Virus record (IMG/VR): IMGVR_UViG_3300031949_000012
Span: 31,290-95,289 of that record
DNA: 64,000 bases
Strand: one strand, 5' to 3'
From: a virus
Shown here piece by piece: positions 4,180 to 64,000 of this stretch. The position numbers and the translations under genes are program-made. Position 1 is the first letter of the stretch. Each line of letters starts with the position of its first letter. The notes beneath the pieces are model-generated. The model worked only from the letters and a program-made list of their open reading frames with translations, ran no database searches and was not told the DNA's origin.

Positions 4180-4218
4180 CTGTCCAATTTTGGACAGCTA
4201 TATTCGACGGGCTCAATA

Positions 4219-4254
4219 CAAAAAGTCCCTGGCTGCCGGTCCAGGGACTTTTTG
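4219..4254. terminator. Bidirectional intrinsic terminator
   Basis: CAAAAAGTCCCTGG-ctgccggt-CCAGGGACTTTTTG. Confidence 0.88.
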
Positions 4255-4302
4255 CTTCTCAGGAGGTCCAACAAAACAAAAAGGAGGAAAACAATGTTTA
4301 CG
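4219..4302 (-). ncRNA. Candidate anti-RBS sRNA 1 (~84 nt)
   Basis: Lies between a perfect promoter and the terminator; no ORF; carries ACAUUGUUUUCCUCCUU and UUGGACCUCCUG tracts. Confidence 0.65.
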
Positions 4303-4308
4303 GGCTAA

Positions 4309-4337
4309 ATTATATATGATGGTTACATATCTGTCAA
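4309..4337 (-). promoter_or_regulatory. Sigma70 promoter, perfect consensus
   Basis: TTGACA-17 nt-TATAAT on the minus strand. Confidence 0.88.
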
Positions 4338-5108: not shown

Positions 5109-5137
5109 TTGACAAGTTATGCGGCTTATGTTATATT
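5109..5137 (+). promoter_or_regulatory. Sigma70 promoter upstream of virion operon
   Basis: TTGACA-17 nt-TATATT with extended -10 TG. Confidence 0.75.
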
Positions 5138-5205
5138 TGACTGGAATGTCGTCCTATATGTAGGGCGTGGGTTGAAACTAATTATAGAGAACGGGTGATG
5201 TGGCT

Positions 5206-5243
5206 TAGGGCTGCGGTAGTATAACCGCAGCCCTATTTTTTTT
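5206..5243 (+). terminator. Intrinsic terminator in the leader of the virion operon
   Basis: TAGGGCTGCGGT-agtata-ACCGCAGCCCTA followed by T8. Confidence 0.85.
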
Positions 5244-5261
5244 GGCTGACAGGAGAAAGTA

Positions 5262-6587
5262 ATGCCCTGGGATGTCTTCAAAAAGGACAATGAATACTGC
5301 GTACACAAGATAGATGATGATGGCGAGATGATGGGCGAGTCATTAGGCTGTCACAAGAGCCGCAAAGAAGCAATGGCCCAAATGAAAGCCCTCCACGCTA
5401 ATACCGATGAGAAGTTTGAAGATGAGCCGATTGGCTTCGGCTGGACTCTCCTGGCCGTAGCTGCCACCAACCGGCCGGGGACGCAGCAAAAGGGACACGA
5501 ATTATCCCTGGCAACGATAGATGGTAGAACCTACATTCGTACCCCCATAGTCAAGAAATCCGTAATCCGTAATCGAGGCAAAGTTCACCGCATTGACCAG
5601 ACCGTTTTTGACCAGGTTCTTCGGAACCACACCAATGAAGTCTGGGATAGTGCGCCTTATTTGCGCGTTTCTCATGAAGAGGGGGAAACCCGGCCGCCAG
5701 CCTTATGTTGGTTTGATAAGGACTCAGGCGGCTTTTTGCGCCAGGAGAAGAACTGGCTGGTCGGTTACGCATTGCCAGCTGATGCGGAAGTGGAAGATGC
5801 CATTAAGAAGAAGAAATGGCGCTATGCCTCAGCAGACCTTCACCCCGACTATACCTCAAACCAAATTGCGGTTTTAGAGACGGCAACGTTTGAATATCTT
5901 AGTGACAATCAGTTAAAGGAGATCAAGATGGATGAAAAAGAGAAAGAGCGCCTGCTTCAGCTTGAGCAGGAGCGAACCGACCTGCTGACCCGTCTGGAAG
6001 CGTCTGCGAAAGATCAGCTGCGCTTGCAAGAGCAAGTCAAGGAACTTTCAGTTAAGTTGTCCGGGACCTCTCAACCCCAGCTGGATGATGCGCCAGCTTG
6101 GGTAAAGGAGAAATTGGCCCAGCTTGAGAAGGAAAATATGGCCCTGGCCTTCGAGCGCGAGCAGGAGCGCAAACAGGCGCAGCTGGAACGCCGGGTGGCC
6201 AAGGCTGAGGCAATGGTCGCCAGACTTACGGCCAAAAGGGATAATGGCTATATTCTGCCGGCCGTGGTTATCGAAACGGCCAAGTCTTTGGTATTGGCTC
6301 AACCCATTGGTGAGGGGGACCGGGTTATTCAACTTGAAGCAACCCGTCCGCCCACAGTTGAGGAGCTGATGGATTATTACTTTGAAGGTGTCCAGCAGTT
6401 GGTCAACCTTATTCCGCCGATGGTGCGGTTAGAAGGGCAAACCGAGACGACCGATGTCCGCCTGGAAACCCTGACCGGGCCATTTGGTTATAGCCCGGCT
6501 GAGCTGGCCAAGAAATATGCAGAGAAGGCTGAGAAAATCTGGAGCGCATCACTGCCAGCCAAACAGGCCGGAAACAACGCAAATTAA
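5262..6587 (+). CDS. Prohead protease/scaffold protein (Mu I/Z-like organisation)
   Basis: Precedes decoration and capsid genes; WRYASADL segment; coiled-coil C-terminal half with internal RBS and ATG at 5928. Confidence 0.65.
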   Translation: MPWDVFKKDNEYCVHKIDDDGEMMGESLGCHKSRKEAMAQMKALHANTDEKFEDEPIGFGWTLLAVAATNRPGTQQKGHELSLATIDGRTYIRTPIVKKSVIRNRGKVHRIDQTVFDQVLRNHTNEVWDSAPYLRVSHEEGETRPPALCWFDKDSGGFLRQEKNWLVGYALPADAEVEDAIKKKKWRYASADLHPDYTSNQIAVLETATFEYLSDNQLKEIKMDEKEKERLLQLEQERTDLLTRLEASAKDQLRLQEQVKELSVKLSGTSQPQLDDAPAWVKEKLAQLEKENMALAFEREQERKQAQLERRVAKAEAMVARLTAKRDNGYILPAVVIETAKSLVLAQPIGEGDRVIQLEATRPPTVEELMDYYFEGVQQLVNLIPPMVRLEGQTETTDVRLETLTGPFGYSPAELAKKYAEKAEKIWSASLPAKQAGNNAN

Positions 6588-6619
6588 CTCCCCCGTAAGG
6601 GGAAAGGAGAAAGAGTAAC

Positions 6620-7033
6620 ATGGCTAATCCGACTTCCTGGGTCAGCAAAGGCCCGAAATTCATGTCGCCGCTGGCCTCAACCGATAACCTTGCCCGGTTG
6701 CTGCCCCGCATGTTCGACATGGCTTACCCCCAACTTACTTTTGTTGACGCCACTCACGTTCATGGTGAATATGCAACGCCTGGCCTGGTGGTTGCTCTTA
6801 ATAGCGTGACCAACAAGTATGTCCCCTGGGTTACTGACGCCTCACACGGGGCGGGCAGTGACACGGCGGTTGGCATCTTAGTTGAGCTGCTTGAGATTAC
6901 TACCTGGGACCGGGCCTGTACACCGGTTTATCATGGCGAGATGGTGGAGCAATACTGCTACACCGAAGCAGGCGCAATCGGCACAATTCCGGCCGGGGTC
7001 AAGACTGACTTGCCCGACATTCAGTGGAAATAA
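6620..7033 (+). CDS. Head decoration protein (gpD-like)
   Basis: 137 aa between scaffold and capsid; KYVPW...GSDTAVGIL motif; strong RBS. Confidence 0.72.
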   Translation: MANPTSWVSKGPKFMSPLASTDNLARLLPRMFDMAYPQLTFVDATHVHGEYATPGLVVALNSVTNKYVPWVTDASHGAGSDTAVGILVELLEITTWDRACTPVYHGEMVEQYCYTEAGAIGTIPAGVKTDLPDIQWK

Positions 7034-7045
7034 GGAGAATAGAAA

Positions 7046-8236
7046 ATGTCTCAATATGCAAATCTGTGGTTGCATCGGACCTTCCTTGAGGAAGTTCTGA
7101 AGAAACGGCCGGATCGGAGCAAGGTTGGCTACCTGCAAAACTTCATCTGGCGCGAGTTCTTTCAATGGAAAATGTTTGACTCCCGCAATATCCTGATGGA
7201 ACGCGGTCGCGGCCAGAACCAATTGGCCGGTCTCTCCTCACCAGAAGGCCAGGCATTGCCTCGGCCGAAGGTGAGCGGTGACACCTTCCTCTCGACCCTG
7301 ATGGATGTCAAATCTTATGCCCTGGTCAAGCCCGACATTGTTCAGGCTGACCTTCAGTTGGGCGAATTGGCCGTAGCCAGAGCCACCGGCACATCGGTTG
7401 CCCGGCAGATGGAATCTAAAGTTACCGACTACATTACAAACGAGATGGCTGAAAATGAGGATGTGGTAGATAACATGTTGGAATATCTGGCTGTGGGCGC
7501 ACTCAAGAACGCCGTTACCTGGCCGCCAGTGACTAATGCCGGCGCTGCTATTACACCGGCCCCACGCTACTGGGGTTCAGAGATTGCCGGTACCTGGAAT
7601 GTGGGCCTGGCCGCCGAACTCAACCAGGTGATTACTTCTCTGGTGGATAACGCTGGTTCTGCGGCGACAGCCGACCAGCGCAAAGTCTGGTCCGACGCTT
7701 CGGCTGACATCATTGGGGCGCTGGACGTGGTAGACCAGATTTGTCGCCAGAACCACGCTTTCACTATCCGGGGTGGACAGATTATTTGCCGCAGCACGCT
7801 GATGAAACACCTCATCAAAAATACGGCCATCTTGAACCTGCTGCGAGGCGATACACATGAACAACCAGGGGCCAGCGGCTTCATTACTACCAAACAGCTA
7901 GAGGACTGGTTTGCCACCGGTCTGGACTACAAGTTCCGGTTCTATGACACCTTCTGGACATACGAAGCGTTGACCAAAAATGCCGACTATACGCCCTCAG
8001 TTGTCTATTACCTGAACGAAAACGAAATTATCTTTATCCCTCCGCAAGGAATCAGCGGTTGGATGGGCACAGCGCCGCTGGAAACCGAAGATGGCTCCTA
8101 CAATGAAGGCGGCCCGATGCCCTGGCTTTACCGGCGGCCAAAACCGCCTTACGAGCGGGAGATGGGTGTTCACACAGTCGCCTGGCCAGTATTTGCCGAC
8201 AACCTCATGTGGGTTCGGCTTCAGGTCTTAACCTAA
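7046..8236 (+). CDS. Major capsid protein (lambda gpE-like)
   Basis: 396 aa, strong RBS, synteny; EYLAVGALK, WSDASADIIG and C-terminal AWPV segments typical of gpE-like capsids. Confidence 0.8.
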   Translation: MSQYANLWLHRTFLEEVLKKRPDRSKVGYLQNFIWREFFQWKMFDSRNILMERGRGQNQLAGLSSPEGQALPRPKVSGDTFLSTLMDVKSYALVKPDIVQADLQLGELAVARATGTSVARQMESKVTDYITNEMAENEDVVDNMLEYLAVGALKNAVTWPPVTNAGAAITPAPRYWGSEIAGTWNVGLAAELNQVITSLVDNAGSAATADQRKVWSDASADIIGALDVVDQICRQNHAFTIRGGQIICRSTLMKHLIKNTAILNLLRGDTHEQPGASGFITTKQLEDWFATGLDYKFRFYDTFWTYEALTKNADYTPSVVYYLNENEIIFIPPQGISGWMGTAPLETEDGSYNEGGPMPWLYRRPKPPYEREMGVHTVAWPVFADNLMWVRLQVLT

Positions 8237-11463: not shown

Positions 11464-11806
11464 TAAATTGCAAACGCCGGTTGAAATTGAACCCATCGAA
11501 ATCACCGTAACCGAAGAAACCGGCTTTCTAACTCATGAAGATGAAGTAATCCCTGAAAGCAACGGCTCACTTCCCCGGCCAACGGTTTCAATGGCCTGCA
11601 TTTCTCGGCTGGGAAGTTATAGCTGCACCGGGCTTGTTACTGGCAGGTCTTATCATATTGAACATACCGGCACATCAGGTATAGACCTGGAAGATGCCGA
11701 AATTATTTCTACTACGTCCATCACCATCCGGTGTAGGCGCACCGGAGGTTGGATCGATGTAATTCCGGCCGGAATTACATCGGATATTGAGTTTGTCGAA
11801 ATATGA
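11429..11806 (+). CDS. Hypothetical protein
   Basis: ORF fills the gap in the operon; start uncertain. Confidence 0.5.
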   Translation: MSRGVPVTRRFDKLQTPVEIEPIEITVTEETGFLTHEDEVIPESNGSLPRPTVSMACISRLGSYSCTGLVTGRSYHIEHTGTSGIDLEDAEIISTTSITIRCRRTGGWIDVIPAGITSDIEFVEI

Positions 11807-11834
11807 TTAGTTAAATAGTTAAAGGAGAAAGATC

Positions 11835-12494
11835 ATGGCTGAGTTTTTTACCCACGCAGGACCGACCGCAACCTTACCCTACACCGCGGAATGGGAAAGC
11901 AGAGTTCGTATTGGCACAGGCCAGGGCTATGCAGCCCTCTCTGTTACCGGAGACTTATACGTCGCCGGATATGATTATGCCTCGATTGGATTGCAGGCCA
12001 GCAAAGCAACCGACCTGGGCATTTTGGGGGCGGCGCCATCCATTGAACCCATTGCTACCTTTGAGGAAATTGAGGGTGGTAATGTCAAGAGTTCAGGCGA
12101 ATTTAGCCTGACTGAGGAAGGGTTGACGATTGGCCTCTCCCTCCGGGAGTGGAACCCCACCGTGATTGAAGCGGTTGTGGCTAACGGTTCCATGTATACG
12201 GTTGGGGCTGGCGGCACGCAGCGGCTGATTGAGGCTGGTGGTTCTTGTACCATTCGTAACCGGCCGCTTGAAATTTCAGCGTTCAATATCGGTTGTAACG
12301 CGCCGGCAGCACAAGCTATTGCTGCCGGTATCCAGGGCTGGGTGATGACCGTTTATGGCGGGTACTTCTCGTCAGGTTTTAACATTGGCGAGCTTTCCCC
12401 GCGTGAAACCAGCATTTTGGAGCTGGAATATACGGCTATTCCGCTGTTGACCAAGGCCCTGGGCAACCGACTTTATAACATCTACATGTATTAG
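11835..12494 (+). CDS. Major tail tube protein
   Basis: Strong RBS, 219 aa beta-rich, directly upstream of chaperone and tape measure. Confidence 0.7.
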   Translation: MAEFFTHAGPTATLPYTAEWESRVRIGTGQGYAALSVTGDLYVAGYDYASIGLQASKATDLGILGAAPSIEPIATFEEIEGGNVKSSGEFSLTEEGLTIGLSLREWNPTVIEAVVANGSMYTVGAGGTQRLIEAGGSCTIRNRPLEISAFNIGCNAPAAQAIAAGIQGWVMTVYGGYFSSGFNIGELSPRETSILELEYTAIPLLTKALGNRLYNIYMY

Positions 12495-29051: not shown

Positions 29052-29300
29052 ATGCTTACTCACGAAGAAATCGAGGAAACCGTTACCGAACTGAAAACGG
29101 CTAAAGAACAATTGATGGCGCAGCTAAACTTTGTCGAAGGACAGCTTAGGGCTTACCAGTTGGTTCTTAGCGGTAAGCCGAAACCGGTTGAGGCTTCGAC
29201 CCTTCCACAAGGTCAGGGCTCAGCCGATCCGGTCGAAGCCAACGGGCAAACGCCGGCCAAGAAATCCAAAGAGGCGGTTCCGGCCGACCAAATTAGATAA
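29052..29300 (+). CDS. Small coiled-coil protein
   Basis: RBS AAGGA; follows tail fibre. Confidence 0.6.
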   Translation: MLTHEEIEETVTELKTAKEQLMAQLNFVEGQLRAYQLVLSGKPKPVEASTLPQGQGSADPVEANGQTPAKKSKEAVPADQIR

Positions 29301-29312
29301 GGAGAATAGATT

Positions 29313-29918
29313 ATGGCAACAATTACTTTTGAAGGTTATATGGGCACTACGCCCGATTGGGCCGATTTGGCCGCTAACACGCTGGTCCTTAGTGGCTCGC
29401 TGACCGACCCGACAGCAGCGATTAACACCGCTGCCTGGCAAGACGGCACCCACGCAGGTAGTGGAGACCCAGGGACGGATCAGTGTGGTACGAACCACAT
29501 GCGTAACGTTAAGTACCTGACCGGCTCTACGATGTCGGTCAATGGTGGTGGTTCGGAGGCTATTAACGACACCAATCTGCTTACAACCGAATGTACACTG
29601 CGGGTTCATTTCAACCATACCAGTGCAGTGGCGGTCACTAATGCCCGCTTTTACTGCTACGACCAATCTGTGGGCGTCACTACAGAGTCGCCAGAGGTGG
29701 ACTGTTTCGCCTTTGAACGTGGCGTTGCAGCCACCGCCTGGACCGAGATCAACAACGATAGTGGAAGTATCGGCGGCGACAACTCCGGCGAGCGGCTGGC
29801 GCTGGCGAACAGCGCTTCGGCCACCGACCATTACTGGTATCTGGCCCTGTCTATCTCGCCAGAAACGGTGGGTGGTAAACCGAATTTGGCCTTTGGCGTC
29901 AACTTAACCTATAGTTAA
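29313..29918 (+). CDS. Putative virion structural protein
   Basis: Strong RBS AAGGAGAATAG identical to capsid RBS; Thr/Gly-rich. Confidence 0.6.
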   Translation: MATITFEGYMGTTPDWADLAANTLVLSGSLTDPTAAINTAAWQDGTHAGSGDPGTDQCGTNHMRNVKYLTGSTMSVNGGGSEAINDTNLLTTECTLRVHFNHTSAVAVTNARFYCYDQSVGVTTESPEVDCFAFERGVAATAWTEINNDSGSIGGDNSGERLALANSASATDHYWYLALSISPETVGGKPNLAFGVNLTYS

Positions 29919-34729: not shown

Positions 34730-35140
34730 TTAAAGGGGCGTCTCTGTTTTCCGATGGAAGTAGACCCAGGTCCCACCCTCGCTCTTTTCAGTAGCCGTTG
34801 AAAACTTATGCCCCTGTCTGCGGGCATAGTTGGCAACGGCGTCGCGAGCTCTTTTCCACTCTTCTTCCCCAAGCAAAACCCGAATTGTTTCGCCAGGCTT
34901 TAATTCATCTACTGCCCGGCGCAGCTGAATCCATCTGCTGTCTCTGAAAGAACGGCCGTCGGGAAAGCCATCCACCTTTTCGATGACCAGGGGTGGCCTT
35001 TGGATAGATGTACGACCGGAAAAGCCCGGCGCCTTTACCTTTAATATCTTGTCTGCATTTTCACGTATCCCGCCGGCGAAATCGGCCATTCCCCAGGCGT
35101 CTTGGGGATTGACAATGTAAACTTCTTTTTCTTCCGTCAT
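34730..35140 (-). CDS. Hypothetical protein
   Basis: RBS AAGGAG, coupled to upstream gene. Confidence 0.6.
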   Translation of the reverse strand: MTEEKEVYIVNPQDAWGMADFAGGIRENADKILKVKAPGFSGRTSIQRPPLVIEKVDGFPDGRSFRDSRWIQLRRAVDELKPGETIRVLLGEEEWKRARDAVANYARRQGHKFSTATEKSEGGTWVYFHRKTETPL

Positions 35141-37564: not shown

Positions 37565-38683
37565 TCATAATCTTGTTCTCACAATCTCCTCCCATTCCAT
37601 AGTCCGGCCAAACATGGCCCCACTGATGGGGCAGGTCATAATTCCGATAGGGGGAAAGTGCCCCCGGCGTCCCTTTAGAATTTCAAACCTGGTCCAGAAA
37701 GGACGCAGGTCGCGGTCATAGTCTACGCGTAAATCAGTTTGCGAGGCAAAGTGCAACTTGTTCCCCCCCATGCTGCCGACAACTTTGCCGCCGCTTCTGG
37801 CCGCCCGGATGTTGGTCACGCTCTCTTGGCTTATCGCCCAAAGAGTTGAGCCGGTTAGCTTTACCCATCGTTCCAGGTAGGGGATAACCCGCATTTGCTT
37901 CTCGTAATCACTGCCATCTAAGAAGTAGGCGGTGATGTGGTCAATAACCAGTTGACGTATCCCTTTTTCGGCCAGGGCCAGCCAGCGCTCGAAAGCGTTT
38001 TCGATGATTGAGGTGTCGGTAAACCGCTTTTCTCGTTCTATCTCATCATAGTGCTCTGAAACGCCATAGACAATGATGGGGAAGGTGGCAATGGCAGCGC
38101 CAGCTTTCTCCCAGGCGTCTACTTGACGCTCGGAGAAATTAAAACCGGGTTGGGCGGCATAACAAGCCTCAACGTAATCAGGAAATAGCACACAGTCTTT
38201 CATCATCTTACCATGCTTCGGACTGGTAATCCCCTCTAGCAATAGTTCAGGCGGGTCGTTGGGCAGCGGCCGGTTAAACATCTCATAGAGACAATGTGCC
38301 CCTTGGGGGCCGGTGTAAAATTCATAGACCATAATTTTGGTGGCCAGCATACATCTCATGACCATAAAGTATCGCTCTATGGTCATCCCAGTCTCTAAAC
38401 TGTCCACCGCCATTCGATATTGAGCCGGCAGCATCCCAGATAGAAATTGATTTAAGATGATATTGAGCAGCAGCGTAGTTTTTCTGGCCCCGCCCTCGCC
38501 CTGAATGGCGATAAGCTGGGACATCAAAGGCTTGATGCCTCGCGGAAACGCCTGATCTATATGATAGAAGCCCCAAGGCACGGCCTTGTCCAGGCCGGTT
38601 TCCTTTGGCGGCGTGTACGCCTGTGGCTCGGTCTCCATTGCAATCCGGGCCGTTAATCCAGTTGTAAGGTTGACGGCGCTCAT
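37565..38683 (-). CDS. DnaB/RecA-fold ATPase (probable replicative helicase)
   Basis: Walker A GEGGARKT, Walker B LVIDHI, AISQ, C-terminal KGRRG. Confidence 0.75.
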   Translation of the reverse strand: MSAVNLTTGLTARIAMETEPQAYTPPKETGLDKAVPWGFYHIDQAFPRGIKPLMSQLIAIQGEGGARKTTLLLNIILNQFLSGMLPAQYRMAVDSLETGMTIERYFMVMRCMLATKIMVYEFYTGPQGAHCLYEMFNRPLPNDPPELLLEGITSPKHGKMMKDCVLFPDYVEACYAAQPGFNFSERQVDAWEKAGAAIATFPIIVYGVSEHYDEIEREKRFTDTSIIENAFERWLALAEKGIRQLVIDHITAYFLDGSDYEKQMRVIPYLERWVKLTGSTLWAISQESVTNIRAARSGGKVVGSMGGNKLHFASQTDLRVDYDRDLRPFWTRFEILKGRRGHFPPIGIMTCPISGAMFGRTMEWEEIVRTRL

Positions 38684-39216
38684 TCATTTGACGCTCCGGC
38701 GTAAATGGCGGCAAAGTCGGTGAAGGTCTGTCGGGCGGAAACTGTGGCCATGATAGTCCGCCTCTTTATCCGGTAAAGCTCATTGGCCTTGTAGGTCAGA
38801 GCTGCGCCTTTGCCATTAAGCTGGCGAAGGCTTCCTATGTTCTCAGCCCACCACAGGTCTTTCAAAATAAAATCAAAAAGTTCCAGGGCAAAGTTGCTTG
38901 AGGTTAAGCCCGGCAGCGGTTTTTTTTGCGCCTGTAGAAAGGCTCTGGATCGTACCACGATCCAGTAGGCGCAACGTAACTGCTCACGCTTATCTATCGC
39001 GTCAAACAAAAAAGAGGTCCCGTCACGTTTGGAGATAAACTTTTCCAGAAGTTCAATTAACTTCTGGGCCGCTGCCCTCTCCTCATTTAGTAACGTCAAC
39101 CCCTTCTTTCCGATGTCTGTCTGTGCGCCGGGCAGATATAACTCAACGCCACAAGACGGACAACATCCATGCTTTCTAGCCATGAAAGCAACATTACACT
39201 TGGCACATGTACGCAT
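38680..39216 (-). CDS. Zinc-ribbon protein, possible replication initiator/loader
   Basis: CAKC...CPSC; coupled to helicase; strong RBS. Confidence 0.5.
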   Translation of the reverse strand: MRTCAKCNVAFMARKHGCCPSCGVELYLPGAQTDIGKKGLTLLNEERAAAQKLIELLEKFISKRDGTSFLFDAIDKREQLRCAYWIVVRSRAFLQAQKKPLPGLTSSNFALELFDFILKDLWWAENIGSLRQLNGKGAALTYKANELYRIKRRTIMATVSARQTFTDFAAIYAGASNE

Positions 39217-39412: not shown

Positions 39413-39441
39413 ATTATAGCACGAAAATTGATTTTCGGCAA
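39413..39441 (-). promoter_or_regulatory. Sigma70 promoter with palindromic operator in spacer
   Basis: TTGCCG-17-TATAAT; CGAAAATTGATTTTCG at 39422-39437. Confidence 0.75.
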
Positions 39442-39453
39442 GGGGAAAACATT

Positions 39454-39549
39454 AAAAAGAGTAGGGGCTCCCTACAACTAGGGAGCCCCAAAAGGAGGAG
39501 AGAAAATAAGGAGGTGAACAACAGAAGCATTAGGAGGATTCGTTTGTCA
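39454..39549 (-). ncRNA. Candidate anti-RBS sRNA 2 (~95 nt)
   Basis: Promoter 39556-39584, three CCUCC tracts, hairpin 39464-39489 then U-rich tail. Confidence 0.62.
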
Positions 39550-39555
39550 ACCTCT

Positions 39556-39584
39556 ATTATACCCTATTCCTCAAATTTCGGCAA
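39556..39584 (-). promoter_or_regulatory. Sigma70 promoter
   Basis: TTGCCG-17-TATAAT overlapping the SbcC stop codon. Confidence 0.72.
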
Positions 39585-40989
39585 GCTCAACTTCGCTCAA
39601 ATTCTCCTTATTCTTTCGCACCCTGATCACATGGTCAGCCAGGTCAGCCAGGCTGTCATCGTGGGAAATGACGATGAGCTGGTCGTAGTGACCCTTGAGC
39701 CCCGACAGAACCTCCACTAGCTGGCCAATCTGGGGGGCGTCTAAATTTACGGTTGGCTCGTCCAGAATGAACAGCGGCGCTTCCTGCACTGCGCTCAAGG
39801 CCAACCAAACTGAGATGGCAGCCAATCCTTGCTCGCCCCCAGAGAGGTTGGGCTTGAAGCTGATGTGAGGGCTACCATCTATCGAGGCCTCCAGTCCGTA
39901 GTCCGGCAAAATGTAGAGCTCGGCCAGTTCATGGTGAACGCTCATCAGGCGTGAGAAGGTTCTGGTCGCTATCCCCTGGATACGGGCTAGTTTGTATTCG
40001 GTAATCAGGGGCACCGCTTTCTCGATGACCCCGATGACCGCAGCCAGTTTCTTTCTTTCCTCGTAGATGTTGGCAGCTTGGATTTGTAGCTGGCTAACCT
40101 CGGCTTCATTCACGCGGGCCAGGGCCCCTAGACGCTTTTCAAGCGAAGTCAGCTGACGCCGGTTCTCATCAACGAAACCGGTAAGAGCCTTCTCCTGCCG
40201 CTCAATCTCCTGCTGCCGGTGAACTTCCCAGGCTTTCCGGGCGCTCAGTTTTGAGCCACAGACCGGACAAACTGGGTTAATGCTGTCTCTGGCTGGCAGA
40301 GACAGGAACGCATCAGGAGATGTCCGAAATTGGACAAGTGATAGTTCGTGCAGAGCGATGCTATCTCCTAGCTGACTTATCTCTTTAGCTAAGGTTTCCC
40401 TTTGCGCTCCGGTGCTTCGGGATAGCACTTCAGCTTTTGCTTCGAGGGCCTTCTGGTTTGCCTCTAAACCATTGTTTTGAGAGCGTAGGAGGGATAAAGC
40501 CTGCTGATAGGCACTTATCCCGGTTAGCTCGTTGAAAACGTCCCTACGGCGATGTGGGGGCATCAGGAAAGATGATGTGAGTTCCCCTTGGGCGATATAG
40601 CAGGCTGTTTCCGCATAGTAGGGCAAGTTGGTCCCAACCGGCAGGCCCAGATGCAAGCGAATAGCTTGCTCTATCTTGGCCAGGCCATTGACACATTCGC
40701 CATTCCAGTTGAAGTCGGTGATGGAGTTGTGCAAAGCACGGGTGACAACAGCCCGTCCCCCCTGGGTTGATGTAAAGGCAACCTCGACCTGGCCGGTTTT
40801 TGTGCCAGGGCGCAGAAAGTGCCCCTTATTCCGGCTGGGGAGATAGCCGAATAGTCCGAACAGCAATGCCTCAATGATGGTGGTTTTACCTGAGCCGCTG
40901 GCCCCGGCGATGACGTTCAAGCCGGGGGCGAAGTTGACCTTAGCCTGCTGGTACAGGTTGAAGTTCCTCATCTTGACTGAGGTAATCAT
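39571..40989 (-). CDS. sbcC: SbcC/Rad50-like ATPase
   Basis: GASGSGKT, YIAQG Q-loop, CPVC zinc hook, LSGGE signature, ILDEP, ISH. Confidence 0.9.
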   Translation of the reverse strand: MITSVKMRNFNLYQQAKVNFAPGLNVIAGASGSGKTTIIEALLFGLFGYLPSRNKGHFLRPGTKTGQVEVAFTSTQGGRAVVTRALHNSITDFNWNGECVNGLAKIEQAIRLHLGLPVGTNLPYYAETACYIAQGELTSSFLMPPHRRRDVFNELTGISAYQQALSLLRSQNNGLEANQKALEAKAEVLSRSTGAQRETLAKEISQLGDSIALHELSLVQFRTSPDAFLSLPARDSINPVCPVCGSKLSARKAWEVHRQQEIERQEKALTGFVDENRRQLTSLEKRLGALARVNEAEVSQLQIQAANIYEERKKLAAVIGVIEKAVPLITEYKLARIQGIATRTFSRLMSVHHELAELYILPDYGLEASIDGSPHISFKPNLSGGEQGLAAISVWLALSAVQEAPLFILDEPTVNLDAPQIGQLVEVLSGLKGHYDQLIVISHDDSLADLADHVIRVRKNKENLSEVELAEI

Positions 40990-43398: not shown

Positions 43399-43597
43399 GT
43401 AACACTGCCCACAGCTTTTTGCTTAATTCCTGCCTCACTCTTGCTTCAGCAATTTCGTCTGTCAGGTTCTCTACTACATTTGGAATGACATTCAAAACGC
43501 CGCGCAATTGTTTAATGGCGCTTACCAGAACTTCCGCATCGTCACTTCTAATGTCATGATCTAAAACCACGGTCAAGGCATTATATCTGTCAGTCAT
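43385..43597 (-). CDS. Hypothetical protein
   Basis: RBS GGAGGT before ATG 43597. Confidence 0.55.
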   Translation of the reverse strand: MTDRYNALTVVLDHDIRSDDAEVLVSAIKQLRGVLNVIPNVVENLTDEIAEARVRQELSKKLWAVLHGEH

Positions 43598-43865
43598 GTT
43601 TGACCTCCGTCTTATTATATGGTTTCCATATTCCCAAGAGAGGGTCACAACAGGAAATCATTTTGTAGTCAATTAGCTTCTCTATATTCTGTGCTGTCTC
43701 GTGTGGTGGATAGCTTTGCTCTTTGATATAAGCAAGTACATATCCCCCTTCTGGCAGTTCAAACACGGCGGCTGGATTGAACAGGTCGTACCTGTAGAAC
43801 TCTTGGGCGTTCTCTATCGTTTCCTGTTTGCCACTAAACCAATTGATAAAATGATTGATACTCAT
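43590..43865 (-). CDS. Hypothetical protein
   Basis: RBS GGGAGG. Confidence 0.55.
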   Translation of the reverse strand: MSINHFINWFSGKQETIENAQEFYRYDLFNPAAVFELPEGGYVLAYIKEQSYPPHETAQNIEKLIDYKMISCCDPLLGIWKPYNKTEVKHD

Positions 43866-43876
43866 AAGCCTCCCAT

Positions 43877-43954
43877 AAACAAAAGTGGGGCATCTGGCTG
43901 GGATGCCCCGTAAAGGAGAATAGGAGAAAGAGTCATTTGGCTAGAATGTCTCAT
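43877..43954 (-). ncRNA. Candidate anti-RBS sRNA 3 (~75 nt) complementary to structural-gene RBSs
   Basis: Promoter 43960-43988; body AUGAGACAUUCUAGCCAAAUGACUCUUUCUCCUAUUCUCCUUUA; terminator hairpin 43887-43909. Confidence 0.7.
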
Positions 43955-43959
43955 AAACT

Positions 43960-43988
43960 ATTATAAGCCGAAAATTGATTTTCGTCAA
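43960..43988 (-). promoter_or_regulatory. Sigma70 promoter with palindromic operator in spacer
   Basis: TTGACG-17-TATAAT; CGAAAATTGATTTTCG at 43969-43984. Confidence 0.82.
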
Positions 43989-43989
43989 G

Positions 43990-44562
43990 TCATAAGGCTA
44001 TGATTTCCTCCGGGCCAAAGGAGTATTCTGCCTTGCGCCCGTCATTCATATAGTGCTCGATGGAGAGCAACGCGGTGTGAACGGCCATCCGAATGAGAGG
44101 CAAGCCCAAGGTATAGGTGTAGAAGTAATATCCTTCCCAATCCGTATCTTGTATTTGCCAGTTCTCATCCCAGATAACGGTTCCAGTCTGTGTTTCATTG
44201 ACGCTAATGTGCAGGGTAGGGACGCCCAAGTTGTGCAAGAGGTTCCTTGCCCTGGGATTATCCAGAGCGTCTATGATAAGCACCGGCTTTTCCCTGGCTA
44301 GTATCTTGAGAACTAAGTCTTGGGTTAAAGTCTCTTTCCAAGGTTCGGCCTGGGCCTGGCCACGCACATGGATCATGTGCCCCAGCCCAAATGCTTTATT
44401 GCAAGAGATAAGGTCATCCGGGTAGATGGATGCCGCCAGTTTCTCTGGCTCAATCCGGCCGTCATCGAATAGAGTAAAGTATTTGAAGGTCATACACAAT
44501 TCATACCCGATGCGGCTGCCGATTGCGCCACAACCGCAAATCCAAATCCTATTTTGTTTCAT
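43990..44562 (-). CDS. ThiF/E1-like adenylation-family protein
   Basis: ICGCGAIGS, LFDDGRIE, NKA, IIDALDNPRAR. Confidence 0.75.
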   Translation of the reverse strand: MKQNRIWICGCGAIGSRIGYELCMTFKYFTLFDDGRIEPEKLAASIYPDDLISCNKAFGLGHMIHVRGQAQAEPWKETLTQDLVLKILAREKPVLIIDALDNPRARNLLHNLGVPTLHISVNETQTGTVIWDENWQIQDTDWEGYYFYTYTLGLPLIRMAVHTALLSIEHYMNDGRKAEYSFGPEEIIAL

Positions 44563-51000: not shown

Positions 51001-51879
51001 GGCGGCCCCGGTTCATTTGGGATTTCCGGCGCTCATTCGCCATCTTGTTCATACTCCTCTTGTCTGGCTTCTTCTTTCAGTATCATCTCCCAGACCTGGG
51101 CCGCTTCAGCATGATAGTTTGCATCTTCCAGGGCCCAATGGAAAATTCTTAGCAGGGGCAGGCCATCCCAGTCGCAAAAGCGGGCCAGGGCAATACCCAG
51201 GCCGTTCTCCTGGCGTTCCTGAACGTTGTCAGGCCGGATATGGTCCGGCGGCAAAGACTCCTCTGCTTCGTAAATGGCGATCCTACTCAGCAGTTCGCTA
51301 GAGTTTAATTTGGTAGACATTGTTTTCCTCCTTGAATTGTAGTTCTAAAGTGTAGCCGGGGGGATATTCCCCATTGCTGACTAAAACTATCTTTCCGGCC
51401 GAAAGAGTGATAGTGATTTCCTGAGCACGTGATACCTCTACGCTTTCTACTTCTCCATCTAAAATGGTTTGAATTTTAGCCTGCAACAAGTCGGCCTCGT
51501 TATCTGCATCTTCATCTCCCCAACCTTCAATCTCCTCAGCTTGATAAAGGCCAGCCGGCGAAATGCTGTCTTCAGCATCGGGCGTTCTGGCTTCAATGAT
51601 CTCGAACGGAACGGATCGGACCGTGAGCTTGTAGCTATGAGGAAATTCAAGGCGATACACTCCCTTGATGATAAGGTGGGGGTAAATCATCAAGCGGTTA
51701 GGTTTGCCATAAATCCAGGTGTCGTTCCAGTAATAGCCCTTCCTGTAACAAAAGTCTACAATGTAATTCTTGTCGTCATCTGGAAAAACGACTGGCAGGC
51801 GTTTCGCACTTTCTATGACAATCTTGTTTTCAGGCGGGTCCAGGGGACCCTGGTAAGTCAGCTTGATTTTGCGTTTCAC
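48021..51879 (-). CDS. Run of small hypothetical ORFs (48021-48275, 48262-48867, 48854-49198, 49198-49575, 49572-49760, 49757-50140, 50169-50429, 50442-50792, 50789-51052, 51033-51320, 51298-51879)
   Basis: Overlapping or coupled ORFs, most with clear GGAG(G) RBS; no recognisable family. Confidence 0.6.
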
Positions 51880-59002: not shown

Positions 59003-59148
59003 CCGGCGTCGGGCGAAGATTTCAGGAGAGGCTTTCGCTCAGTCGTCGTCTCTTTCAACCGCTGCCCGACGCCGGACACTTGTCGCCGAGCTTTGTAGGA
59101 GAGACTTTCGCTCAGTCGTCGTCTCTTTCAACCGCTGCGACAGGTGTC
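59003..59148. repeat. Two tandem hairpin units sharing a 42-nt core
   Basis: Direct repeats 59024-59065 and 59097-59138 (1 difference), each closed by a different 12-bp stem. Confidence 0.85.
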
Positions 59149-59739: not shown

Positions 59740-60207
59740 TTATTTTTTATAACCTTTGGATATGCTTCTAATACCCCTTTTATGGCAAGGCCCACAAAGT
59801 TCATTATGGGTCAAGCCTCGCCAATAAAAGGCGCATATTTTACATTTATGTAAAATTGTTCTTCTGCTGGCTTTTGGTGCCTTATTTTCCGGTTGCTCTA
59901 AATTGTTTTTCTCTGCTTCCGCTCTCCTGGCCGCTTTGACTGCCTTTACAACTTTATTGGCTAAAACAAAGAAAATTCCGCCTGGAAAGCGTGGCCGGCT
60001 TCCATCCGGTAGCATCATAACCCCGCCCGAATTGACGAACTTTAACGTTTCGAGATAAACCAGGCGGGTTTGCTTTGCGCCGATAGAACGCAAAATTTTT
60101 CGTAGACGACCGCAATCCCCCTCGAACCTTTCTGGGTCCTTGAAAAAGGCGGCCACAATTTTATTATAAACCTCAAGTTGTTCTGGGTTCAAATCCGAGA
60201 TTGGCAT
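59740..60207 (-). CDS. PHAX-type RNA-binding domain protein
   Basis: IG...ET...GG...DGSRPRFPGGIFFVL closely resembles the PHAX RNA-binding motif (DGSRRRTPGGVF); C-terminal CxxC...CxxC. Confidence 0.72.
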   Translation of the reverse strand: MPISDLNPEQLEVYNKIVAAFFKDPERFEGDCGRLRKILRSIGAKQTRLVYLETLKFVNSGGVMMLPDGSRPRFPGGIFFVLANKVVKAVKAARRAEAEKNNLEQPENKAPKASRRTILHKCKICAFYWRGLTHNELCGPCHKRGIRSISKGYKK

Positions 60208-61539: not shown

Positions 61540-61568
61540 ATGATAAGCCAAAAATCAACTTTTGTCAA
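61540..61568 (-). promoter_or_regulatory. Sigma70 promoter
   Basis: TTGACA-17-TATCAT. Confidence 0.78.
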
Positions 61569-63792: not shown

Positions 63793-64000
63793 AAGTTCTC
63801 CTTTAGGCTTTGGAAGTTAGCCTTGTTTTCAGCGTTTTGATCGCTTTCCAGACGTAAACGCCCGGACAAGATAGCATCACGGGCCGGATAGCCAGGGCTT
63901 GCGGTAGAAAAGACCGGCGCCCCGGAATCAGCGATAAAGGATTGATTTATCCTTGTTTTCTCGCGTCCGTTTGGCCCCTGGTTGGCTGCCGCTTCCCATT

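Follow-up and report, generated by a model that had tools for sequence, protein, structure and literature searches.

An intergenic unit (u1) on the minus strand of a soil phage genome was found to combine a near-consensus promoter, a CU-rich stretch and an intrinsic terminator, and is predicted to yield an RNA of about 75 nt whose unpaired body is antisense to the translation start regions of late genes. The start region of the head-decoration gene is its one statistically solid predicted target, and the bias of u1 toward late genes as a class is real. We tentatively propose, at a likelihood we place somewhat short of even, that the RNA acts in trans and would occlude the ribosome-binding sites of the decoration gene and of other late-type starts.

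The IMG/VR record is 95,289 bp long, carries 127-bp direct terminal repeats and is rated complete. The window analysed here, 64,000 nucleotides, comprises bases 31290-95289 of the record, and window coordinates are used throughout. The source is a soil metagenome. Contigs from two soil DNA runs comprised the source assembly and, from a second soil study, two identical 151-nt fragments, with no variants; no RNA run was listed as containing the u1 locus. Virion genes occupy the plus strand from about −7.4 kb to 34.7 kb, a block that includes a weak terminase match, a Mu-like portal, a gpD-like head-decoration gene (6620-7033, +; PHROG 49, Pfam HDPD) and the major capsid protein gene (7046-8236, +). 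The minus strand from 34.7 to 64 kb, together with most of the first 23 kb of the genome, holds replication, recombination and ORFan genes; the products of this early arm include ThiF-like, DUF5131, SbcD-like and SbcC-like proteins, a 5'-3' exonuclease and an RNA ligase, and for most early proteins a Pfam family is absent. No integrase or resolvase of the tyrosine or serine recombinase type was found in the genome, and the phage is apparently virulent; a role in a carrier state (or in lysogeny), raised in an earlier sequence-only reading of this DNA, thus has no basis.

Several further features of the genome were recorded. A TusA-like match on the same arm as the ThiF-like gene (34730-35140, −) falls below threshold (24.0 bits against a cut-off of 28.6), and together with the ThiF/E1-like protein (43990-44562, −) it hints at a sulfur-relay or adenylation modification system. 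A 155-aa protein (59740-60207, −) carries a PHAX RNA-binding domain (Pfam E 1.8e-9, above the cut-off); the surroundings of its gene hold several promoter-to-terminator units, and it is possibly an RNA chaperone. A non-coding 42-nt direct repeat, 97.6% identical, lies at 59024-59065 and 59097-59138, with 73 nt between the copies, and a perfect 28-nt palindrome (11755-11782) is located near the end of the gene preceding the one that starts at 11835, a putative tail tube gene.

Searches for relatives returned little. Blastn against 50,697 phage records retrieved only a DUF5131 fragment of Sinorhizobium phage PBC5, and IMG/VR, queried with four proteins (ThiF-like, 91-aa, SbcC-like and capsid) as well as two DNA patterns, yielded at most a weak match of 38 residues. 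The ThiF-like protein retrieved only itself from a set of 5.8 billion proteins, and the capsid protein had no match in GTDB genomes. The only 21-mer match in the JGI metagenomes (L005, 394-414) was rejected as chance, since it falls within the coding sequence for a signal peptide on an unrelated, AT-rich contig that shows no further similarity; in a database of this size, identical CU-rich 21-mers can evidently arise by chance. Scanning of the 64 kb with Rfam gave no match at gathering thresholds: the best sub-threshold matches scored 13-16 bits against cut-offs of 41-57, with E values of 3-10 (chance level), csRNA (RF02379) reached 15 bits against a cut-off of 57, and RsaE (RF01820) likewise stayed below its threshold.

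A survey of gene starts across the whole genome revealed two Shine-Dalgarno (SD) dialects, one early and one late. The great majority of early minus-strand genes use AGGAGG. Most late genes have a weak SD or none, with six strong exceptions that carry GGAGAA(A/T)AG; among the strong late starts, GGAGAAUAG occurs in capsid, portal and the gene starting at 29313, and GGAGAAAGA in decoration and the gene starting at 11835. The late promoters are sigma-70-like in appearance (TTGACA-17-TATTAT at about −7434 and TTGACA-17-TATATT at 5109).

The u1 locus is the 124-bp gap between the ThiF-like gene (stop 43990) and a 91-aa ORF (start 43865), both on the minus strand. The −35 hexamer TTGACG (43983..43988) begins 1 nt past the TGA stop of the ThiF-like gene (43992-43990), and the −10 hexamer TATAAT (43960..43965) matches the consensus. 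Judged by consensus match, the promoter TTGACG-17-TATAAT (43988..43960) scores 11/12, near the E. coli consensus, and is the best of the promoters in the 8 kb scanned. The terminator is an 8-bp hairpin with six GC pairs, GGGGCAUC-CCAGCCA-GAUGCCCC (43887..43909), followed by the U-rich tail ACUUUUGUUU (43877..43886); the hairpin with ACTTTTGTTT is the best terminator in the 8 kb scanned. Both elements are as the sequence-only reading had described them. A separate terminator scan was too noisy for use, and missed the second unit described below. The U-run begins 2 nt past the stem, so termination may be partial, an efficiency judged from this spacing. By these consensus matches, u1 has its own promoter and intrinsic terminator around a short stretch without a convincing ORF; the sole ORF in the unit has 30 codons and lacks an SD. 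The AUG of the 91-aa ORF (43865..43590, −) lies 11 nt past the U-run, preceded by its SD AUGGGAGGCUU (SD and AUG together at 43865..43876), with GGGAGG before the AUG.

The promoter spacer contains a 16-bp, operator-like near-palindrome, CGAAAATCAATTTTCG (43969..43984). An identical copy occurs at 39422-39437, in the spacer of another promoter (39441-39413), and a variant with three mismatches at 61549-61564, in the spacer of a third (61568-61540); allowing up to three mismatches, six matches were found against 0.71 expected. From this recurrence, CGAAAATCAATTTTCG is likely an operator for a DNA-binding regulator, and the identical palindrome in a second promoter spacer argues that the u1 promoter is functional and regulated. 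Pfam analysis of 20 early proteins gave no helix-turn-helix candidate for the operator-binding protein.

The predicted RNA is 75-78 nt long (43877..43954, −), its 5' end placed from the −10 hexamer and its 3' end from the U-run. Folding of the 78-nt form gave a minimum free energy (MFE) of −18.6 kcal/mol (z −2.5) with the terminator hairpin as the dominant structure, and RNA nt 26-45 (CUUUCUCCUAUUCUCCUUUA) are single-stranded in both the MFE and centroid folds. The CU-rich body of about 45 nt, AUGAGACAUUCUAGCCAAAUGACUCUUUCUCCUAUUCUCCUUUAC, contains two tandem anti-SD boxes. Box A, ACUCUUUCUCCU (43922..43933, −), is the exact complement of AGGAGAAAGAGU in the decoration start region and includes the complement of the late 9-mer GGAGAAAGA. 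Box B, UCCUAUUCUCCUU (43913..43925, −), is perfectly complementary to AAGGAGAAUAG at capsid and 29313 and to AGGAGAAUAGGA at portal. At the 5' end of the RNA, UGAGACAUU (43945..43953, −) is the complement of AAUGUCUCA over the capsid start codon (7045-7053).

The matches on which the idea of a regulatory RNA was first based were confirmed by a string check, in which all quoted strings and coordinates proved correct. Decoration 6605-6626 aligns colinearly with 43922-43943 at 19 of 22 positions. The capsid string AAGGAGAATAG occurs at 7032 and 43913, and also at 29299 ahead of the gene at 29313, while AATGTCTCA occurs at 7045 and 43945; the two 10-mers of the 11835 gene were located at 11820 and 11823, and AGGAGAAAG, from the gene starting at 5262, at 5251. 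A match to an early-arm ribosome-binding site (63796-63805) is present on the other strand. The names "tail tube" (11835) and "scaffold" (5262) had been given by position only, and neither gene has a family match.

The best predicted target is the decoration start region from −27 to +8 (6593..6627, +), which would pair with RNA nt 11-46 (43944..43909). The duplex consists of a perfect 12-bp block (ACUCUUUCUCCU/AGGAGAAAGAGU), a 6-bp block at the start codon region and a further block, with G·U pairing, to CGUAAGGGG, in total about 27 base pairs over 35 nt, and the underlying alignment spans about 36-38 nt (43906-43943 against 6591-6626). BLAST with a 141-nt query against the genome gave an E value of 2.6e-4 for this match, which becomes about 0.2 when scaled arithmetically to a whole-genome self-comparison; in a blastn-short self-comparison the match was not highly ranked, and self-matches of similar score were present. 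For raw duplex energies of the 46-nt body against all start regions (−35 to +20), decoration reached −41.6 kcal/mol and the next five −29.7 to −27.1. None of 331 dinucleotide-shuffled bodies reached this value (best energy mean −30.4, sd 2.7, minimum −40.3). Raw duplex energies alone are nevertheless weak evidence, because reverse-complemented start regions of this genome, paired with other starts, give energies from −31 (median) to −43.7. The Smith-Waterman score of the decoration match, 35, falls near the 98th percentile of a start-region null, in which every start was compared with every other (best-score median 22, 95th percentile 33, maximum 36). The pairing of an accessible seed with the SD and AUG of a distant mRNA is thus beyond chance on raw energy, but the margin is lost after accessibility correction.

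Corrected energies were ranked over the start regions of 154 genes called by a codon-usage and SD model, of which 39 belong to the late block. The top six are all late-block genes, namely decoration (−21.0), 11835 (−19.6), capsid, portal, 5262 and 29313; this six-of-six enrichment has a hypergeometric P of 1.9e-4, for a hypothesis derived from the very sequence used for testing it. The prediction that structural genes would head a hybridisation ranking was therefore not refuted, the six best of 154 predicted targets being late-block genes. The real value of −21.0 falls within the range of shuffled bodies, whose best corrected energies had a mean of −18 and a minimum of −27.8, and shuffled bodies placed only 0-3 late genes in their top six. 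It is specificity, not strength, that distinguishes u1 from the shuffles. The proposal of a silencing RNA keeps its stand-alone unit with an unpaired body antisense to late starts, but finds no backing in corrected energies, which are no better than those of shuffles.

The late specificity of u1 follows from its body, which complements both strong-late 9-mers, GGAGAATAG and GGAGAAAGA, in tandem, while early genes use AGGAGG. These 9-mers occur 6 and 7 times in 190 kb (both strands), and the chance of finding both in any single 46-nt genomic window was estimated from background counts at about 1e-3. In a scan of all 46-nt windows on both strands, u1 ranked second by the number of start regions with a common match of at least 10 nt (8, of which 5 are late and 3 early), and the third-ranked window was another unit of the same kind (u3, below); the other top windows lie upstream of genes on the coding strand and are apparently true starts; u1 itself is not a start region. 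At 13 nt, its longest perfect match involves an early gene, encoding 78 aa, that lies beyond the window.

Predicted pairing stronger than an anti-SD box alone would give was obtained for decoration only. The capsid start region (7032..7053, +) has bipartite complementarity of 11 nt and 9 nt and a corrected rank of 3 of 154. Smith-Waterman scores are 26 for portal, 24 for 11835 and 22 for capsid, and the capsid, 11835, 5262 and 29313 matches range from 22 to 26 against a null median of 22. These four, claimed earlier as targets in their own right, thus reach only the level of an anti-SD box, and the non-decoration matches reflect the common Shine-Dalgarno motif and not gene-specific design.

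Two further units of the same build were found, and no intergenic cluster of anti-SD motifs other than u1, u2 and u3 lies on the minus strand. Their common order is a promoter at the stop of the upstream gene, a CU-rich body, a GC hairpin and a U-run. The second unit (u2; 39452..39585, −) has the promoter TTGCCG-17-TATAAT, which overlaps the SbcC-like stop codon, three anti-SD boxes in its body (UCCUCCUA, CACCUCCUUA and CUCCUCC) and a 9-bp GC hairpin followed by UACUCUUUUU; CACCUCCUUA is the exact decamer of the 16S 3' end, and the operator-bearing promoter 39441-39413 lies directly downstream. The third (u3; 4215..4337, −) has the sole 12/12 consensus promoter in the genome (TTGACA-17-TATAAT) and two CCUCCU boxes, with a bidirectional terminator where two genes converge; no gene on the same strand lies downstream of it, and it is therefore not a leader. 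Among the top ten predicted targets of u2 and of u3 there are no late genes, and early genes are preferred. Over 17 nt, u3 perfectly complements the start region of the gene at 51033-51320, and its match of about 32 nt to the start region of the gene at 38680-39216 scores 38, above the null maximum.

The main alternative, possible though less likely than the trans-acting reading, is that u1 is a cis leader or attenuator of the downstream operon (the 91-aa and 70-aa ORFs, DUF5131 and SbcD-like genes), in which the hairpin is a read-through or antiterminated terminator, the CU-rich box hides the SD of the 91-aa ORF and the short RNA is a by-product. The terminator is promoter-proximal as in such leaders, with the same-strand gene 11 nt past the U-run and no promoter between, and the offset U-run suggests leaky termination. 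In a 115-nt read-through RNA, UCUCCUAU, which spans the junction from the 3' end of box A into box B, forms an 8-bp helix with the SD of the downstream gene, AUGGGAGG, in both the MFE and centroid folds; any anti-SD box pairs with any SD, however, so this helix carries little weight.

A similar layout without anti-SD boxes lies at 5109-5262 (+), immediately upstream of the 441-aa, decoration and capsid genes, with the promoter TTGACA-17-TATATT (5109-5137), a leader of about 95 nt, and a 12-bp hairpin and U8 ending at about 5243. Promoter-proximal termination is a habit of this genome. Lambda pR'-tR' combines a strong sigma-70 promoter, a short terminated 6S RNA and then same-strand genes in an antiterminated operon. 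By analogy, the 5109-5262 layout suggests that the head genes need antitermination. The layout of u1 is also like that of pR'-tR'; the lambda 6S RNA has no known trans target, and the u1 body, unlike 6S RNA, mirrors start regions elsewhere in the genome. No Q-like antiterminator was identified in this phage, most of whose early proteins lack a Pfam family. A leader leaves the 36-nt decoration match, the presence of both late 9-mers and the late-gene bias unexplained, and fits the sister units poorly, as no same-strand gene follows u3, and another promoter lies directly after u2. The cis leader and trans-acting roles are compatible with each other.

It is improbable that the locus has no dedicated function, its promoter-like site, the terminator of the upstream gene and a purine-rich tract having come together by chance, perhaps as a duplicated relic of a late start with a plus-strand mini-ORF of 6-9 codons. 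The plus strand does resemble a start region with TTG/ATG mini-ORFs, and the borderline standing of the decoration match in the self-comparisons (E about 0.2, with similar-scoring blastn-short self-matches) counts in favour of this reading. The promoter-body-terminator order common to three units, the operator held in common with another promoter and the agreement of the shuffle and genome-wide window tests all point the other way.

We consider it more improbable still that u1 produces a real RNA serving as a decoy for a protein or ribosome factor, or as a general anti-SD sponge, with the PHAX-domain protein as a possible partner. All three units have two or three generic anti-SD boxes each, u2 with the exact 16S decamer CACCUCCUUA, most u1 matches are at the SD level only, and the phage does encode a PHAX RNA-binding-domain protein (59740-60207). 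No partner was identified, however, and the extended decoration match and the 17-nt match of u3 to the gene at 51033-51320 point to specific mRNAs. Least probable is a leaderless mRNA for a 30-aa peptide (43954..43862, −), whose AUG would be the first triplet of the RNA and whose coupled translation would melt the terminator: the ORF spans the whole leader and ends in an AUGA overlap with the 91-aa gene, but 30 open codons are expected by chance in about 24% of cases by arithmetic, and more readily in G/A-poor sequence, the frame has no SD, the peptide has no family, and neither u2 nor u3 has an equivalent ORF.

For the preferred reading of u1 as a trans-acting RNA, the architecture, fold, complementarity statistics and two sister units were computed, and from these we infer transcription, RNA ends, trans action, timing and a repressor as follows. 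Transcription by the host sigma-70 polymerase would begin near 43954-43952 and end at the hairpin with its U-run (43909-43877), giving an RNA of about 75 nt. Its two tandem anti-SD boxes in nt 26-45 would be tuned to the late start flavours GGAGAAAGA and GGAGAAUAG. The RNA would pair in trans over the SD and AUG of the decoration mRNA, and less strongly at the starts of capsid, portal, 11835, 5262 and 29313, keeping 30S subunits off the target mRNAs. Since the late promoters appear sigma-70-like too, the RNA could mute leaky translation of virion genes early in infection. Later, a DNA-binding protein at the 16-bp promoter palindrome may turn the RNA off.

The closest functional parallels are the Gram-positive C/U-rich sRNAs that target SDs (LhrC1-5, RsaE/RoxS, RNAIII, SprD, FsrA; PMC4132741, PMC2790875), of which LhrC has three C/U-rich sites and may bind several mRNAs (PMC4132741). 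Like the LhrC/RsaE group, u1 is predicted to be a short RNA with its own promoter, a Rho-independent terminator and redundant, unpaired, pyrimidine-rich motifs that pair with SDs and block initiation. Members of that group are cellular and present UCCC in loops, whereas u1 is phage-encoded and carries UCUCCU boxes in a linear stretch; its boxes, unlike theirs, extend to 11-12 nt matching the phage's own late starts, and u1 has no homology to them in sequence or structure.

Most phage regulatory RNAs described so far act as antisense in cis or are directed at host genes. C4 of P1/P7, sar of P22 and DicF of prophage Qin are phage RNAs of about 50-80 nt that pair around ribosome-binding sites and block translation (PMC12197685). 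C4 is processed out of a transcript shared with its target ant, and its a' and b' sites lie ahead of the gene it regulates; sar is antisense in cis, and DicF is directed at host ftsZ; u1 does not share the c4 layout, having its own promoter and a best target 37 kb away on the opposite strand. A review of phage sRNAs lists none that acts in trans on the phage's own capsid or virion genes (PMC12197685), and its current catalogue has no entry for a phage RNA directed in trans at ribosome docking on the phage's own capsid-module mRNAs.

A conceptual parallel is found in T4 RegB, in that one temporal class of mRNA is inactivated through the SD. The strong-site consensus of RegB is GGAGRAYARAA (PMC3014915), and the capsid start region GGAGAAUAGAA / GGAGAATAGAA fits this RegB/S1 strong-site consensus exactly. 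RegB is a protein nuclease that acts on early mRNAs, whereas u1 is proposed to be an RNA effector acting on the late class, and no RegB homologue was found in this genome.

A bolder extension, which we regard as doubtful, is that the phage translatome is split by SD flavour, with the constitutive, 16S-mimicking u2 and u3 acting on early AGGAGG starts and the operator-controlled u1 on virion GGAGAA(A/U)AG starts, so that, in a phage with sigma-70-like early and late promoters alike, the temporal programme would be set largely at ribosome docking by three related anti-start-site sRNAs. If true, RNAs matched to early and late SD flavours would constitute a new layer of temporal control, and would offer a natural template for the programmable silencing of phage genes.
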